From assembly GCA_017437745.1 (NCBI GenBank), contig JAFRYI010000006.1, forward strand, positions 1,964 to 65,963: a stretch of 64,000 nt of DNA. The letters run 5' to 3'. Source of the stretch: Bacillota bacterium. Lineage in GTDB: Bacteria; Bacillota; Clostridia; Peptostreptococcales; Anaerovoracaceae. Below are positions 16,626-50,372 of this stretch, in pieces. Made by a program: the position numbers and the translations under genes. The notes under the pieces are model-generated. The model searched no databases. It saw only the letters and a program-made list of their open reading frames with translations, and was not told where the DNA came from. How positions within the stretch are numbered: position 1 is the stretch's first letter; each line of letters begins with the position of its first letter.

Positions 16626-16661
16626 GGTTATTCTCGTGTACCATATGTTGTTGTTTTTCGA

Positions 16662-16677
16662 TGTTTCACGTGAAACA
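16662..16677. promoter_or_regulatory. parS site 1
   Basis: TGTTTCACGTGAAACA is a perfect match to the Firmicute parS consensus TGTTNCACGTGAAACA. Confidence 0.9.
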
Positions 16678-16706
16678 TCGGTAGCCCGGCTCCTGCTGTC
16701 GGCAAA

Positions 16707-45411: not shown

Positions 45412-45514
45412 CGAAAAGCAAGTAATTGCTCTTGAACCATCCGGATCGATACGATCATGGTGGCTTTGATGCCCTGCCCCAGATATCTCTGTACCGTTTT
45501 TGCCAATAATAAAA

Positions 45515-45543
45515 TTGAGCGCCCGGGGCGCTCTTTTTATAAT
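45515..45543 (+). promoter_or_regulatory. terminator hairpin (GAGCGCC-cgg-GGCGCTC + T5) overlapped by a sigma-A-like promoter TTGAGC-17-TATAAT
   Basis: -35 TTGAGC at 45515-20, a 17-nt spacer and -10 TATAAT at 45538-43. The hairpin at 45517-33 can terminate on either strand. Confidence 0.55.
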
Positions 45544-45549
45544 GTTATT

Positions 45550-45777
45550 GTGCTGCCGGAAGACGGTCAGCCCTTCCGCTTGGAGGGGTATCCTCCGGGC
45601 GAGAATTCGCAAAGGGGGTGATCCTATGACTGTAATGGATATGATCACGCGGATCTGCTTTGCAGTGACGCTTTTTATAGCCGGTTACACCATCGGAAAA
45701 AAGAAATGATCGCCAAATAGTTTCGAGGCATTGACGATCATTGTCAATAATCCAGGCTGACCGTCTTCCGGCAGCAC
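45550..45777. repeat. perfect 23-nt long-range inverted repeat flanking the small ORF
   Basis: GTGCTGCCGGAAGACGGTCAGCC at 45550-45572 has its exact reverse complement at 45755-45777. Confidence 0.95.
45626..45709 (+). CDS. 27-aa hydrophobic peptide, candidate type I toxin
   Basis: MTVMDMITRICFAVTLFIAGYTIGKKK. Strong SD AAGGGGGTG 5 nt upstream. The 69-aa track ORF (45500..45709) shares the frame, but its upstream part crosses the promoter/terminator. Confidence 0.45.
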   Translation: MTVMDMITRICFAVTLFIAGYTIGKKK

Positions 45778-45831
45778 CTTTGTATCAATAGTTTATCAGC
45801 GGGGCGCAGACGCGTCAAGCGCATTGCGGCC

Positions 45832-45870
45832 CTGAAAAGAAAAAAGCCCCGCATGGACGCGGGGCTGCTT
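45832..45870 (-). terminator. intrinsic terminator of serA (usable on both strands)
   Basis: AGCCCCGC-atggac-GCGGGGCT. On the minus strand it is followed by TTTTTTCTTTT. Confidence 0.85.
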
Positions 45871-45901
45871 TTATTGACACCGTCTGATCTCTGTAAGATC
45901 C

Positions 45902-47074
45902 TTACTTAATGATACGTACGCGTATAACTCCGTCTATGGCCTCCAGTGCGTCGGCAAGCTTCTGCGGTACCTGGGTGTTGAAGTCCAGGATGGTGTAGGC
46001 TATGCCTTCGCGGGCCTTGTTCACCAGATTCTCTATGTTGAGGCCCATGCCTGCGATCTTCTCGGTCATGAGGCCCAGCATGCCGACCTTGTTCTCGTGG
46101 ATGACGGTTATGCGGTCGCCTTCCGCGCGGGCGAAGCTGACGTCCGGCAGGTTTACGGAGTTGAGCACGTTGCCGTTCTCTAAGTAGTCGATGGTCTGGC
46201 GGGCCGCCATGATCGCGCAGTTGATCTCCGCCTCCGGGGTGCCGCTTGCCAGGTGAGGCGTGCAGAACACCTTGTCCATCTTCTTCATGCGGGGGGTGGG
46301 GAAGTCCGTTGCATAGCCGGCTATCTTGCCGCTTTCGAGAGCGTCGCAGATTACGTCGCCGTCGACTATGCCGCCGCGCGCGAAGTTCGCAAGGTAGACT
46401 CCGTCCTTCATAAGAGCGACGGCCTTTGCGTCTACCATTCCCTTGGTCTCATCGTTGAGCGGGGGATGCACGGTAACTACGTCCGCGTCCTTTATCGCTT
46501 CCTCGAAGCTGGGGGCGAAGTCCAGATATGCGCCAAGCTCCAGATATCTGCTGTGCGACAGGTAGGGATCGTAGCCTACGACCTTCATTCCAAGGTCGTG
46601 GCAGGCCTTGGCCACGCGCGAACCTACGTTGCCCACGCCGATCACCGCTATCTTCTTGCCCATTATCTCCGGGCCGCGGAACTTTTCCTTGCCGGACTCC
46701 ACAACGTTCTTGCCGTAGGCGGAGTCTTCGTCGGAGAGATTGCGGACCCAGGTCATGGCCTGGTAGCCGTTGCGCATGCTCATGATTATCGCCGCGATGG
46801 TCATTTCCTTTACCGCGTTGGCGTTGCCTCCGGGGCAGTTGACCACGCATATGCCCTGCTGAGTGCAGCGCTCGATTGGGATGTTGTTTACGCCTGCGCC
46901 GCAGCGCGCGATTATCTTCAGCTCCGGGCCGAATTCCATGTCGTGGATGGGCATGGAGCGTACCAGTATGGCGTCCGGTTTTTTAACGTCCTTGCTCAGC
47001 GTGTATTTGTTCGTGTCGAACGCGTCTATGCCTTCCTTGGCGACGTTGTTAAGAACCAGAATGTTGTTCATCAT
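45902..47074 (-). CDS. serA: D-3-phosphoglycerate dehydrogenase with C-terminal ACT domain
   Basis: 390 aa. NAD-binding IGVGNVGSRVA, 2-hydroxyacid dehydrogenase core and an ACT-like tail. Lies downstream of serC. Confidence 0.88.
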   Translation of the reverse strand: MMNNILVLNNVAKEGIDAFDTNKYTLSKDVKKPDAILVRSMPIHDMEFGPELKIIARCGAGVNNIPIERCTQQGICVVNCPGGNANAVKEMTIAAIIMSMRNGYQAMTWVRNLSDEDSAYGKNVVESGKEKFRGPEIMGKKIAVIGVGNVGSRVAKACHDLGMKVVGYDPYLSHSRYLELGAYLDFAPSFEEAIKDADVVTVHPPLNDETKGMVDAKAVALMKDGVYLANFARGGIVDGDVICDALESGKIAGYATDFPTPRMKKMDKVFCTPHLASGTPEAEINCAIMAARQTIDYLENGNVLNSVNLPDVSFARAEGDRITVIHENKVGMLGLMTEKIAGMGLNIENLVNKAREGIAYTILDFNTQVPQKLADALEAIDGVIRVRIIK

Positions 47075-47139
47075 ATCCTCCTTGACGGCCTGCGCCGTGT
47101 GTCTGCCTTTTTTCCGGGGCGTCAGCCCTGACGTCCGAA

Positions 47140-48252
47140 CTATCTGTTGGCCAGCTCGAACTCTTTCATTACTTCTATAAGCTTTTTGACGCCCTCGAGC
47201 GGCATTCCGTTGTATATGCTTGCTCTGCAGCCGCCTGCCGCGCGGTGTCCCTTAAGGTTTATCAGGCCTTTGGACGCTGCCGCCGCCACGAAGTCCGCGG
47301 TCAGCTGGTCGTCCGGGAGCCGGAACACCACGTTCATGATAGATCGGTCGCCCGGCCGTACCGGGTTGGTGTAGAGCCCGGAGTTGTCGATGAAGTCGTA
47401 CAGCAGGCCTGCTTTTTCGCGGTTCCTGCGCTCCATCTCAGCCACGCCGCCCTGTTCCTGCACCCATTTGAACATCAGTCCGGATACGTATATGGAGAAG
47501 CACGGCGGGGTGTTGTACATGGATCTGGCCTTGACCATGGGCGCGTAGCGAAGCATTATGGGGACCACGGGGTCGATCTCGCGCTCCAGGATGTCCTTTT
47601 TAAGGATGACCACGGTGACGCCCGCGGGGCCTATGTTCTTCTGCGCTCCGGCGTAGATCAGGTCGTAGTCCTTAACGTTTATGTTTACGCCCAGGATGGC
47701 CGACGACCAGTCGCCGACAAGCCTTGCGTCCTTAGCGAAAGCGGGTATCTGCGGGATGTCCCAGAAAGTCGTTCCGAATACGGTGTTGTTTCCGGTAAAG
47801 TGCAGGAGCTTCGCGTCCGCAGGGAAGGGCCGAGCCTCGGAGCCTTCGCCTATCTCAGGTATGAAGGTGTACTTTTCGTCCGCGGAGCTTGCCACGCATA
47901 CGGCGTTTCCCCAGCGGGCGCCTTCGTCCATGGCTTTGCCGGAGAACTGGCCGGACTTGATGAAAGCCATGGTATCGCCCTGATGGGCAAGGTTCATGCA
48001 GACCTCGGAGAACTGCGTGGTGGCGCCCCCCTGGAGGAACAGCACCGCGTAATCGTCCGGAATGTCCATAAGCTTGCGCAGGTCCGCCTCGGCCGTGTCG
48101 ATTATGGCGTCGAAGGACTTGCTGCGGTGGCTCATCTCCAGCACCGAAGCGCCTGCGCCCGGGTAGCAGAGCAGGTCTTTCTGCGCCTGCTGAAGAACTT
48201 CCATGGGCATCTGGCTTGGGCCGGCCGAGAAATTGTAGACTCTTTCTTCCAT
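47140..48252 (-). CDS. serC: 3-phosphoserine aminotransferase
   Basis: 370 aa. YNFSAGPSQMP N-terminus and GAQKNIGPAGVT PLP-Lys region. Confidence 0.92.
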   Translation of the reverse strand: MEERVYNFSAGPSQMPMEVLQQAQKDLLCYPGAGASVLEMSHRSKSFDAIIDTAEADLRKLMDIPDDYAVLFLQGGATTQFSEVCMNLAHQGDTMAFIKSGQFSGKAMDEGARWGNAVCVASSADEKYTFIPEIGEGSEARPFPADAKLLHFTGNNTVFGTTFWDIPQIPAFAKDARLVGDWSSAILGVNINVKDYDLIYAGAQKNIGPAGVTVVILKKDILEREIDPVVPIMLRYAPMVKARSMYNTPPCFSIYVSGLMFKWVQEQGGVAEMERRNREKAGLLYDFIDNSGLYTNPVRPGDRSIMNVVFRLPDDQLTADFVAAAASKGLINLKGHRAAGGCRASIYNGMPLEGVKKLIEVMKEFELANR

Positions 48253-48358
48253 TTTGACGGATCCTTCTATGTTCCGGGCCTGACGCTTCAGTATCCTGCC
48301 CGCGATCTGCAGAACTATGTCTGCGATCGGCGCAGCGGTTCGCCGCCCGTACTCTACT

Positions 48359-48386
48359 AAAAAACCGGAAGTGCAAGCTTCCGGCT
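48359..48386 (-). terminator. leader terminator (attenuator) upstream of serC
   Basis: Minus-strand RNA is AGCCGGAAG-cuugca-CUUCCGG followed by UUUUUU, about 105 nt before the serC ATG. Confidence 0.7.
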
Positions 48387-48420
48387 GATCATCGTGTTAT
48401 CGTACCAGGAAAGCTCGCAT

Positions 48421-48489
48421 TCAAAACTTCAGCACCCAGGAGGAGCCGGAGCAGGAAGACGATGAAGACGAGGATTTTGTGATTCTCAT
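48421..48489 (-). CDS. 22-codon Ser-rich leader peptide (candidate serCA attenuator peptide)
   Basis: My translation is MRITKSSSSSSSCSGSSWVLKF. It has seven consecutive Ser codons (TCC TCG TCT TCA TCG TCT TCC) and 10 Ser in total. SD AAAGGAAAG. Confidence 0.55.
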   Translation of the reverse strand: MRITKSSSSSSSCSGSSWVLKF

Positions 48490-48517
48490 ACAACTTTCCT
48501 TTCGAAATATTGTGTTA

Positions 48518-48546
48518 ATAATACGCTTATGCGCGGGAAATGTCAA
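48518..48546 (-). promoter_or_regulatory. sigma-A-like promoter for the serCA leader
   Basis: On the minus strand, TTGACA (48546-48541), a 17-nt spacer and TATTAT (48523-48518). Confidence 0.6.
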
Positions 48547-48573
48547 TAAGGGATTTGCTCCGCCTGGAGTAAT

Positions 48574-48603
48574 AAAAAACCGGACCGGCTGTGCGGTCCG
48601 GGT
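48574..48603 (-). terminator. intrinsic terminator after the bactofilin gene
   Basis: On the minus strand, CCGGACCG-cacagc-CGGTCCGG followed by TTTTTTATT. Confidence 0.8.
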
Positions 48604-48623
48604 GTGTTCAGGTATTGCGGGAA

Positions 48624-49100
48624 TTACTGCTCTATGGGCTGCGCGTCGGCTACGGGCTGAACGTCCTCCGCGGGTTCCGGTGTCTTTACTACCGGCGGCT
48701 TGGGTACCATGTTCAGCTTGCCCTCGAAAGCGGAACCGTCGTCCGTGCGAAGACTGGCTGTGGATAGGTTGCCCTTAAGAGCTCCGGTGGAGCGTATGAC
48801 GGTCTCGTCCGAGCAGAGCACGGTGCCTTCCACGCGGCCTTCAAGATCCAGCGACTTGAGCGCGGCTTCGCCTACGAGCGATCCGTTCTCCTTTATGCTT
48901 ACGCTGCTGGTGGAGCGGATGTTTCCGCGGATGGTTCCGAGGACCTCTATGGGCTCCTTGGAATCGAAATTGCCTACTACGATAACGCCTTTGCCTATGA
49001 CGGTGGAGGGCGCGACGGGCTTAGGTTCGGGCTTTGCTATTTCCTGTACGGGCTCCTCATATACGGGGGCCTGGTATTCTTCCTTTTTTCTTCCAAACAT
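48624..49100 (-). CDS. bactofilin-family polymer-forming protein
   Basis: 158 aa. Repetitive beta-helical pattern (IGKGVIVVGNFDS...IRGNIRSTSSVSI...VGEAALKSLDLEGRVEG...) with disordered Pro-rich tails. Confidence 0.75.
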   Translation of the reverse strand: MFGRKKEEYQAPVYEEPVQEIAKPEPKPVAPSTVIGKGVIVVGNFDSKEPIEVLGTIRGNIRSTSSVSIKENGSLVGEAALKSLDLEGRVEGTVLCSDETVIRSTGALKGNLSTASLRTDDGSAFEGKLNMVPKPPVVKTPEPAEDVQPVADAQPIEQ

Positions 49101-49179
49101 AATGTCTCCTTTATCTGCTGCGGCGGCCTGCGCGCCGCGTTCTTACTTAAGCGTACATTAATAATACACTAAAAGAAAA

Positions 49180-49208
49180 TTGCGGGCAAGTGCATTTGGT
49201 GCTATAAT
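49180..49208 (+). promoter_or_regulatory. sigma-A-like promoter for the DMT transporter gene
   Basis: TTGCGG (49180-85), a 17-nt spacer and TATAAT (49203-08) with TG at -15/-14. Predicts a ~150-nt 5' UTR. Confidence 0.55.
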
Positions 49209-49364
49209 CGCAACATAATGCTTTAAATCGCGGGCCGGAAGGCCTTGAAACGCAAGAGCGCAGGTAATTCGCACTGAAATTCAGTTGCAGATGCGGGCAG
49301 GTCCTGTCGGGCCGAACAGGCAAGGACGGAACGCAGACCGGTCAGGAAAAACACAGGCAGGTAC

Positions 49365-50372
49365 ATGGCAAAGGAAAGGAACAACAATCTGGCAGGAAGT
49401 TTCATGCTGCTCGGCGCCGCTTTCGTGTGGGGCGTCGCTTTTGTGTTCCAGGTTGAAGGCATGGACCACGTTACGCCGGTCACCTTCATGGCGTCCAGGT
49501 GCCTTCTGGCCACTGTCTTCCTTGCGGTGCTCGTGATCGCGGTGCGCGGCCCAAAGGACGCGTTCAGGTTCGACATCAATACCATTAAAGGCGGCATAGG
49601 CTGCGGCATAGCCATAACCATTGCCAACAACCTTCAGCAGATAGGCGTGCAGTACACCACGGCGGGCAAGGCCGGGTTCATAACGGCGATGTACATGCTG
49701 CTGGTGCCGATCTACGGCGCGGTGATATTCCGCCGCCGCGTAAGCGCCAGGACCTGGCTGGCGGTGCTGATAGGCGCGGCCGGAATGTATCTTCTGTGCA
49801 TAAAAGAGGGCTTTTCCATAGGGCAGGGCGACGCGTACGTAATAGGATGCGCGTTCGTGTTCGCGGGGCACATAGTCTGCGCGGACCACTTCGCGCCGAA
49901 GGCGGACGCCGTGAAGATGAGTTTTCTGCAGTTCTTCGTGTCGTTCGTGCTGTCTACGATATGGGCATTCATCGCGGAGAAGCCCACGTTTACGCAGATA
50001 TGGGACGCCAGAGTGTCCATCGCGTACTGCGGTTTCGTGTCCGCGGGCATAGGCTACACGCTTCAGCTTATGGGCCAGCAGAGGACCAGGCCGGAGGCGG
50101 CGTCGCTGATAATGAGCCTGGAATCCGTGTTCGCGGCTCTGGCGGGATGGGCAATGCTGCGCGAAGCGATGACTGCCCGCGAACTTTTAGGATGCGCGCT
50201 GCTGTTCGGTGCTATAATATTAGTGCAGACCAAGGCAGCTGAAAAAAACCGGACGGCGGAGCTGCCGGGCGGTCAAACAGTTTCAGAGCCGGCGGCAGAA
50301 CAGTTGGGCGAGATGACAGACTTGAAGACGGCAGCGGAGCTGCCGGAAACGATAACGGATACGGAGCAGTAG
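49365..50372 (+). CDS. DMT-superfamily (EamA-like) transporter
   Basis: 335 aa, about 10 TM helices in two EamA-like halves, with a hydrophilic C-terminal tail. Confidence 0.85.
   Translation: MAKERNNNLAGSFMLLGAAFVWGVAFVFQVEGMDHVTPVTFMASRCLLATVFLAVLVIAVRGPKDAFRFDINTIKGGIGCGIAITIANNLQQIGVQYTTAGKAGFITAMYMLLVPIYGAVIFRRRVSARTWLAVLIGAAGMYLLCIKEGFSIGQGDAYVIGCAFVFAGHIVCADHFAPKADAVKMSFLQFFVSFVLSTIWAFIAEKPTFTQIWDARVSIAYCGFVSAGIGYTLQLMGQQRTRPEAASLIMSLESVFAALAGWAMLREAMTARELLGCALLFGAIILVQTKAAEKNRTAELPGGQTVSEPAAEQLGEMTDLKTAAELPETITDTEQ

Follow-up and report, generated by a model that had tools for sequence, protein, structure and literature searches.

Upstream of the serine biosynthesis genes serC and serA, on the minus strand of a 64,000-nt stretch of contig JAFRYI010000006.1 from a Bacillota bacterium (the window, whose numbering is used for all coordinates unless another locus is named), lies a short leader with the layout of an attenuator. 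The leader and all parts of the serC-serA unit are on the minus strand. It contains a small open reading frame (ORF) with seven consecutive serine codons, followed by an intrinsic terminator, and is likely to be a ribosome-mediated leader-peptide attenuator that couples serC-serA to the supply of charged tRNA-Ser.

The leader is preceded by a promoter that was identified by pattern scan and that consists of the -35 hexamer TTGACA (48541-48546) and the -10 hexamer TATTAT (48518-48523), separated by a 17-nt spacer and matching at 11 of 12 positions. This was the top promoter-like site in a scan of 45500-49500, and a -35/-10 pair with a 17-nt spacer was read at the equivalent position in the sequences of both groups of related leaders described below. 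Transcription would be expected to start near 48511. The leader ORF, which was read from the sequence together with its Shine-Dalgarno (SD) element AAAGGAAAG (48494-48502), comprises 22 codons and a TGA stop codon (48421-48489; ATG at 48489, TGA at 48423-48421) and encodes the peptide MRITKSSSSSSSCSGSSWVLKF. Ten of its codons specify serine, all of them TCN codons (10/10), and seven of these form an unbroken run at codons 6-12 (48454-48474), the proposed sensing codons. A pattern scan located the intrinsic terminator at 48359-48386 (-12.8 kcal/mol); its arms CCGGAAG (48384-48378) and CUUCCGG (48371-48365) enclose a loop and are followed by six U residues (48364-48359), so that the transcript reads AGCCGGAAGC/uugca/CUUCCGGUU and then U6. 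The promoter, SD, 22-codon ORF, seven-serine run and hairpin with U6 are thus all present where the original prediction had placed them.

The first gene that would be regulated is serC (47140-48252), the ATG of which, at 48252, lies 106 nt beyond the leader U-run. Its product was identified as phosphoserine aminotransferase by TIGR01364 (458.5 bits, cut-off 443.6) and NF003764 (474.9 bits, cut-off 253). The second is a serA-like candidate for D-3-phosphoglycerate dehydrogenase (PGDH) at 45902-47074, assigned from domain and PGDH profile matches: the PGDH models ranked best yet scored below their curated cut-offs, and the product has the 2-Hacid_dh and 2-Hacid_dh_C domains and a weak ACT-like C-terminus. 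A serA-like gene adjoined serC in every carrier of the leader in which the contig reached that far. The unit is closed by a strong terminator that was found by pattern scan (45835-45866), with a 9-bp stem, AGCCCCGCG/CGCGGGGCT, followed by TTTTTCTTTT. The gene upstream of the leader encodes a bactofilin (PF04519) and is followed by a terminator of its own (48601-48580), which precedes the leader promoter. Since one terminator precedes the promoter and another follows serA, the leader, serC and serA make up a transcription unit of their own, which begins with the leader. Across the whole 64-kb window no Rfam family scored at its gathering threshold, and there were no tRNAs, riboswitches or T-boxes.

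The conservation of the leader was assessed in the 80 best serC loci, with one genome taken per GTDB species. In all ten of the closest loci (serC 94-63% identical) a short ATG-initiated ORF was located directly before serC, and it encoded either six to eight consecutive serines or two serine runs parted by one cysteine. Three further loci, L011, L012 and L013 (serC 59-61% identical), had Ser-rich but less contiguous leaders with the same terminator core. A Ser-rich mini-ORF followed by a terminator was therefore found before serC in 13/13 of the nearest loci (serC 94-59%) and in 0/67 of the more distant ones, L014-L080, none of which had a Ser-rich leader upstream of serC.

These counts bear on a chance explanation, that the ORF is an open, TC-rich stretch of low complexity that happens to lie beside the ordinary terminator of the upstream gene. 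Runs of serine codons in other frames are not rare at this G+C content: 49 runs of at least five serines, in any frame, were counted in 580 kb of background sequence, a rate of approximately 4e-5 per nt per strand, or one per 24 kb of single strand. At that rate only about 0.01 such runs would be expected per 250-nt upstream region, far from the 13/13 and 0/67 observed. The bactofilin gene already has a terminator ahead of the promoter, and the element is conserved across differing upstream contexts, so that the conservation data contradict this explanation, the probability of which we regard as negligible. When the 64-kb window was scanned generically for short, SD-preceded ORFs with amino-acid runs and a following terminator, the serC leader was recovered together with a single weak match, and there were no further convincing leader-peptide attenuators. 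The weak match was a 16-codon ORF on the minus strand (16628-16678), MFHVKHRKTTTYGTRE, with an SD, three threonines and a nearby hairpin and T-run.

Further leaders were sought in metagenomes with a pattern in which four TCN codons were followed, after a gap of 60-90 nt, by a CCGGARR...YYTCCGG hairpin with a T-run, and the downstream gene was left unconstrained. The pattern matched 51 stretches. The matches that had a short ATG-initiated ORF with at least six serines came from 15 contigs, and all 15 were upstream of serC(-serA). Other matches that lacked serC were rejected as their frames were long or did not start with ATG. One candidate leader, 'MRSSSSSSLSSSSSSMSSSSSSSSLGL' in L098, was rejected as the C-terminus of a 203-aa protein, and a set of human-gut matches of the type 'MILSIFSSSSVF...' (L081, L085, L086, L092, L099, L118 and L121) was judged to match the pattern by chance, on the basis of L121, the sole one checked, in which the match fell within a 565-aa ORF of the other strand. 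The original prediction had proposed a scan of related genomes for a conserved serine-run mini-ORF and terminator, and both were recovered, in the 13 nearest serC loci and the 15 metagenome contigs. The serC genes of contigs L083, L117 and L130 were 98% identical to that of the window.

The resulting catalogue comprised 23 distinct leaders and the three divergent ones (L011-L013), and all of these had an SD and start codon equivalent to those of the window. The 23 leaders fell into two groups. Group A, with 12 members, consisted of the window, L001-L005, L082, L088, L091, L097, L123 and L130, and had the peptide pattern M[RK].T..SSSSSS(S)C.G.SW...; the 11 leaders of group B had the pattern MF..[FLI]SSSS[SC]SSS.S..G.CFAAA. 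instead. The upstream neighbour was a bactofilin gene in group A and unrelated genes in group B. As the upstream gene changes while the leader stays with serC, the leader appears to travel with serC. The carriers, which comprise the 13 GTDB-representative loci and related metagenome contigs, form one clade of uncultured rumen and gut Bacillota. One metagenome-assembled genome (MAG), RGIG6121, gave two serC loci, L002 and L006 (92% and 74% identical to the window serC), with different leader subtypes; this genome either carries two serC-serA copies or is a mixed bin.

The leader ORFs were examined for the kind of constraint that they are under. Of the 22 leaders that cover the region before the ATG, 21 had an SD of the form AAAGGA(A/G) at a spacing of 4-7 nt. 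The ORFs held 7-11 serine codons within 19-27 codons, compared with a serine content of approximately 5% of codons in the long ORFs of the window. The peptides were 19-27 residues long (30 in L012) and their sequences varied (MRITKSSSSSSSCSGSSWVLKF, MYRNFSSSSSSSSRSSKGACFAAA and MFKRLSSSSSSSSRSYMVRVLL, for example), with little in common outside the serine run. Mean column entropy was computed for each position of the serine codons in the alignment of the 23 leaders (alignment A1): positions 1 and 2 were invariant and position 3 was variable (0.35, 0.49 and 1.00 bits, respectively). Serine was retained across both of its codon families, with TCG in group A and AGC in group B in the same column, for example, and an indel that separates the groups near the start of the ORF was 3 nt in length and therefore in frame. 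This is the pattern that would be expected if selection acted on regulatory codons, and not on a functional peptide or an RNA-binding motif.

The mini-ORF could nevertheless encode a functional Ser/Cys-rich product, such as a small protein or the precursor of a ribosomally synthesised and post-translationally modified peptide, with its position before serC merely reflecting operon organisation. Short Ser- and Cys-rich peptides are typical of some modified-peptide precursors, and the ORF is conserved with its SD. However, only the serine run is conserved, while flanking residues and length vary; the ORFs of 19-30 codons lack a leader/core organisation; there are no adjacent modification or export genes, only serC-serA and unrelated upstream genes; and a terminator invariably follows the ORF, with a 5' arm able to pair with the region of the stop codon. 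A functional peptide is therefore extremely improbable as an explanation.

The choice of serine codons was also biased. TCN codons accounted for 93% of the serine codons in the leaders; the corresponding shares were 70% in the serC genes beside them and 64% for the long ORFs of the window. Several other codons recurred beside the serine run: cysteine codons were present in 21/23 leaders, glycine codons in 18/23 and tryptophan codons in 12/12 of the group A leaders. Serine feeds into the synthesis of cysteine, glycine and tryptophan alike, and in the thr leader threonine and isoleucine codons act jointly. The flanking codons could reflect selection for multivalent sensing or could simply reflect the mutational neighbourhood, since TGC is one mutation from TCC or AGC. 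In B. subtilis, ribosomes slow at TCN serine codons when serine is depleted (PMC3862929), and theory ties the sensitivity of an attenuator to many regulatory codons and to starvation-sensitive synonymous codons (PMC1183508).

Every leader had a G+C-rich terminator stem of 7-10 bp followed by U5-U8, and the core CCGGA[AG][AG]...TCCGG with its T-run was present in 23/23 leaders and invariant over serC identities of 59-98%. The core is more conserved than an intrinsic terminator needs, probably because two or three alternative pairings draw on it. RNAalifold analysis of the 23 leaders gave the terminator as the sole common structure, with compensatory changes at two pairs.

Folding of the minus-strand leader, as the original prediction had proposed, gave mutually exclusive antiterminator and terminator structures. 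The minimum free energy (MFE) structure of the window leader did not contain the terminator; it contained an antiterminator instead. The 5' strand of the antiterminator (segment 2, 48404-48419, UGCGAGCUUUCCUGGU) begins 4 nt downstream of the T of the TGA stop codon, and its 3' strand (segment 3, 48372-48389) takes in flanking sequence, all of the terminator loop and five of the seven positions in the terminator 5' arm. In this structure 48419-48409 pairs with 48372-48382 and 48408-48404 with 48385-48389, to the exclusion of the terminator. The free segment folded into the antiterminator with an energy of -18.7 kcal/mol, and the energy of the duplex was -18.9 kcal/mol compared with -10.5 +/- 2.4 kcal/mol for shuffled sequences. 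Ribosome positions were simulated by deletion of the covered RNA before folding. With a ribosome in the serine run of the window leader the antiterminator formed, and with a ribosome at the stop codon, masking the RNA up to 48409, the terminator alone formed.

These folds uphold the logic that had been proposed at the outset, in which a stalled ribosome frees an antiterminator strand and a ribosome at the stop codon masks it, with a different strand in that role (48419-48404 against 48389-48372). The strand originally proposed was codons 13-16 (GCUCCGGCU, 48452-48444), which do pair with the terminator 5' arm AGCCGGAAGC (48386-48377) over 9 bp with one bulge (-14.6 kcal/mol). This pairing was strong only in the window, L130 and L123 (-14.6 to -16.1 kcal/mol), and the strand would be free if a ribosome stalled at the first serine codons. 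It was not conserved, however. The energies were -5.7 to -8.8 kcal/mol in L001, L002, L088, L003, L082 and L091, approximately -10.6 kcal/mol in L004, L097 and L005, and among the group B leaders they ranged from -3 to -8 kcal/mol; the CCGG in the ORF was variously CCGG, GCGG, GCAG, CCAG or CCTG. The geometry was also wrong: the strand lies within approximately 12 nt of the last serine codons and would be covered by a ribosome stalled there, and a ribosome that had reached the stop codon would already have passed it instead of covering it. Furthermore, the MFE structure of the window uses the strand after the stop codon and not codons 13-16. An attenuator that operates through codons 13-16 is therefore very unlikely.

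The layout with a competing strand close to the stop codon recurred in all of the leaders. In the predicted folds of all 23 leaders this strand fell within the interval from -17 to +22 nt relative to the stop codon, and the Ser/Cys block ended with a codon 15-42 nt upstream of the stop. The sequences that made up the pairing differed. In group A the strand is GAGCUUUCC(G), located after the stop codon, and it pairs with CCGGAAG(G)C; in group B it is (UU)GCUGCAGC(UU), located in the last codons, and it pairs with GGCUGCAGC, an upper stem and loop that occurs only in group B terminators. L011, L012 and L013 had an equivalent layout with different sequences, namely GCUUUUCGGA with UCCGGAAAGC, GUCUG.GUUCCGG with CCGGAA..CAGAC, and CUUUUCGGAU with AUCCGGAGAG, respectively. 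At least five solutions that differ in sequence (A, B, L011, L012 and L013) thus arrive at one layout, and a single column-wise antiterminator for all leaders was rejected, since groups A and B differ in strands and registers. The pairing of each strand with its own terminator was stronger than in dinucleotide shuffles (mean z = -2.7; p <= 0.05 in 17/23), and group B strands were mismatched to group A terminators (-9.1 compared with -18.3 kcal/mol). Within group B, 95.5% of the helix was paired, compared with at most 56% when the strands were slid against each other, and there was one compensatory change, from C-G to U-A, in L010.

Several observations weigh against the proposed attenuator or limit the case for it. 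Antiterminator covariation within groups was weak: the one double change in group B was indistinguishable from column shuffles, and the group A helix was nearly invariant, with no double change and with 87% of cells pairing in one fixed register. RNAalifold, which recovered the terminator from the 23 leaders, did not yield an antiterminator. The structural case therefore relies on the repeated, sequence-distinct layouts and on the energies relative to shuffles and not on covariation statistics. Four leaders (L003:2831-2893, L082:5355-5417, L004:2795-2857 and L097:5420-5482) have an earlier stop codon (TAA GTT TGA), 6 nt upstream of the ancestral TGA. In these the competing strand begins 15 nt past the stop codon, beyond the footprint of a terminating ribosome, and the antiterminator is weaker than the terminator (-10 to -11 compared with -12.6 to -16.1 kcal/mol); their stop-codon geometry is borderline. 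A pause hairpin 3' of the serine run was no better than in shuffled sequences (mean z = -0.8). The stability of the whole-leader MFE structure was not unusual either (z = -0.04), although this value is uninformative either way, because competing folds are expected in such an RNA. Finally, the carriers are members of a single clade, and their many leader copies therefore do not represent independent origins.

An additional pairing was predicted in group A. The SD and start region of these leaders (GGAAAGUUGU) resembles the terminator 5' arm (GGAAGCUUGC) and is complementary to the 5' strand of the antiterminator (-13.5 to -16.7 kcal/mol; z -1.4 to -3.2, with most values <= -2.1). When the nascent window transcript was folded from 48511 to 48388, ending just before segment 3, 48500-48494 paired with 48407-48413 and the serine codons at 48472-48463 paired with 48414-48423. 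This would be a 1:2-type anti-antiterminator that leads to default termination when the leader is not translated, and a ribosome in the serine run would disrupt it. No consistent 1:2 equivalent was found in the folds of the group B leaders. A more elaborate version of the attenuator is conceivable, although rather unlikely, in which the leader is a multivalent sensor of the serine family, so that shortage of cysteine, glycine or tryptophan could also de-repress serC-serA. Along the same speculative line, the ribosome-binding site of group A leaders may itself serve as segment 1, and queued or initiating ribosomes, in addition to a stalled lead ribosome, would then decide the fold.

Taken together, the sequence elements and predicted folds suggest the following mechanism. 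Transcription would begin near 48511 and a ribosome would load onto the leader ORF. When serine is plentiful, the ribosome would cross the seven-codon run and reach the TGA, where its footprint would extend over 48419-48409; with this region covered, the terminator hairpin (48384-48365) and U6 would form and transcription would stop approximately 106 nt before serC. When seryl-tRNA is scarce, the ribosome would halt in the serine run, at least 30 nt upstream of segment 2, which would then be free to pair with 48389-48372; the terminator would not form and the polymerase would enter serC-serA. If a group A leader were not translated, segment 2 would pair with the SD and first serine codons (1:2) and termination would be the default outcome. 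Translation of the leader ORF, stalling in the serine run and serine-dependent read-through are predictions from the sequence. The combined comparative evidence strongly supports the original proposal that a serine-codon leader peptide and a terminator make up a ribosome-mediated attenuator of serC-serA, and serine is probably the signal that the conserved attenuator senses.

The terminator and competing helix could, in principle, be real and yet respond to a protein, a small molecule or a tRNA, with the Ser ORF incidental or only modulating. That translation of the ORF has been deduced from sequence leaves room for such a sensor, as does conservation of the terminator core CCGGA[AG][AG]...TCCGG beyond the needs of termination, and a pyrimidine-rich run could in principle bind a protein. 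Several features do not fit. The run varies with codon periodicity, and serine is kept across TCN and AGC codons, which would be unexpected for an RNA-binding motif; the start codon and a workably spaced SD are conserved; and the stop codon tracks the antiterminator strand despite ORF lengths of 19-30 codons. Only a short segment separates the serine run from the terminator, and its conservation from one group to the other is poor. In addition, there was no T-box, riboswitch or other Rfam match to the leader at E <= 10. A sensor other than the ribosome is accordingly quite unlikely.

The Rfam comparison was carried out with cmscan and Rfam 15 on both strands of 47900-48900 (E <= 10), and it gave no match in the leader and two chance matches inside serC. 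At this threshold neither the covariance models of the curated leader families, including His_leader, Leu_leader, Thr_leader and Trp_leader, nor the T-box model (RF00230) matched the leader, which is only approximately 150 nt long; the glycine riboswitch (RF00504) was absent from the window in the Rfam scan. A search of the full-text literature found no description of a serine leader peptide, but most subscription journals were outside its coverage, so an earlier description is possible. The earlier remark that no description of a serine leader-peptide attenuator was known thus agrees with Rfam 15 and with the literature searched.

Leader-peptide attenuation is textbook material for Trp, His, Phe, Leu, Thr and Ile/Val. 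Serine would be a previously unlisted specificity for this mechanism, albeit a mechanistically unsurprising one, and it would occur in a phylum and at genes for which RNA sensors of other kinds were to be expected. The his leader of E. coli and Salmonella is a short ORF with seven consecutive histidine codons that senses charged tRNA. The serC leader resembles hisL (RF00514) in its seven codons for the end product, its intrinsic terminator and an overlapping antiterminator that would be set by ribosome position. It differs in its proposed amino acid, serine, in the genes that it would regulate, serC-serA, in the lack of similarity in sequence or covariance model and in its hosts, which are uncultured Clostridia-like Bacillota; furthermore, group B serC leaders have the antiterminator 5' strand in their last codons and no clear 1:2 pairing. 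As in trpL, segment 2 of group A is predicted to pair either with a putative segment 1 (the SD and first serine codons) or with segment 3, and a ribosome at the stop codon would cover segment 2. In contrast to trpL, the putative segment 1 of group A includes the ribosome-binding site of the leader itself and not the regulatory codons only, there are 7-11 regulatory codons instead of two, and a pause hairpin is unsupported. The mechanism of leader-peptide attenuation has been summarised in PMC9413887.

The expectation that Firmicutes control such operons with T-boxes was broadly right for these genes (PMC8002221), but leader-peptide attenuation had already been predicted in that phylum, for histidine: the B. 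cereus group, Peptostreptococcaceae and Erysipelotrichales, in which control by the usual T-box or repressor is missing, are each predicted to have His leader-peptide attenuators (PMC9413887). The serC leader shares with these His leaders the phylum, the comparative nature of the evidence and the classical form of attenuation, and differs from them in amino acid, genes and lineages and in the number of regulatory codons, since the His leaders have three to five histidine codons (PMC9413887). It would extend classical attenuation to an uncultured rumen/gut Clostridia-like clade. As a candidate new family for RNA databases, it would also improve the annotation of MAGs, in which the mini-ORF and leader are otherwise unannotated.

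Two systems share only part of this layout. In the B. subtilis sinR gene ribosomes likewise slow at TCN serine codons upon serine depletion, but the codons are inside a structural gene and lower its own synthesis, and there is no leader, terminator or alternative fold (PMC3862929). The near-exclusive use of TCN codons in the serC leaders offers a natural test bed for how serine-codon choice tunes the sensing of starvation. Leader ORFs with cysteine codons have been described upstream of cys genes in Actinobacteria, with a Rho-dependent mode proposed (PMC1262725). These, too, are short ORFs with runs of codons for an amino acid of the serine family before biosynthetic genes; they have no conserved terminator or antiterminator hairpins, in contrast to the serC leader, which has a canonical terminator and a competitor.

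In Firmicutes, the known controls of serine genes are Ser T-boxes, glycine riboswitches and CodY (PMC8002221, PMC9481103). A Ser T-box has been shown for serA of Paenibacillus, and several clostridia and bacilli are predicted to have one for serA and serC (PMC8002221). It shares with the serC leader the tRNA-Ser charging signal, the terminator/antiterminator output and the serA and serC targets, but it binds uncharged tRNA directly and has a structured leader of approximately 200-300 nt, compared with the approximately 150-nt leader of serC, which would be read by a ribosome. A glycine OFF riboswitch upstream of serC has also been described (PMC9481103), and glycine riboswitches were located directly upstream of serC in two relatives without the serine leader, L017 (2836-2927, single) and L023 (2706-2807 and 2811-2887, tandem). 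An RT-5 RNA (L014:1298-1398) and an FMN riboswitch (L021:340-457), both unrelated to the leader, flank two other distant serC loci. The glycine riboswitch occupies the same slot as the serC leader, but its aptamer senses glycine, it contains no ORF and it is unrelated in sequence and structure. The serC leader would thus represent a third, independent RNA-level solution in one genomic slot, and the presence of a leader peptide, a glycine riboswitch and a T-box in related bacteria would make the serC slot a compact example of regulatory turnover.

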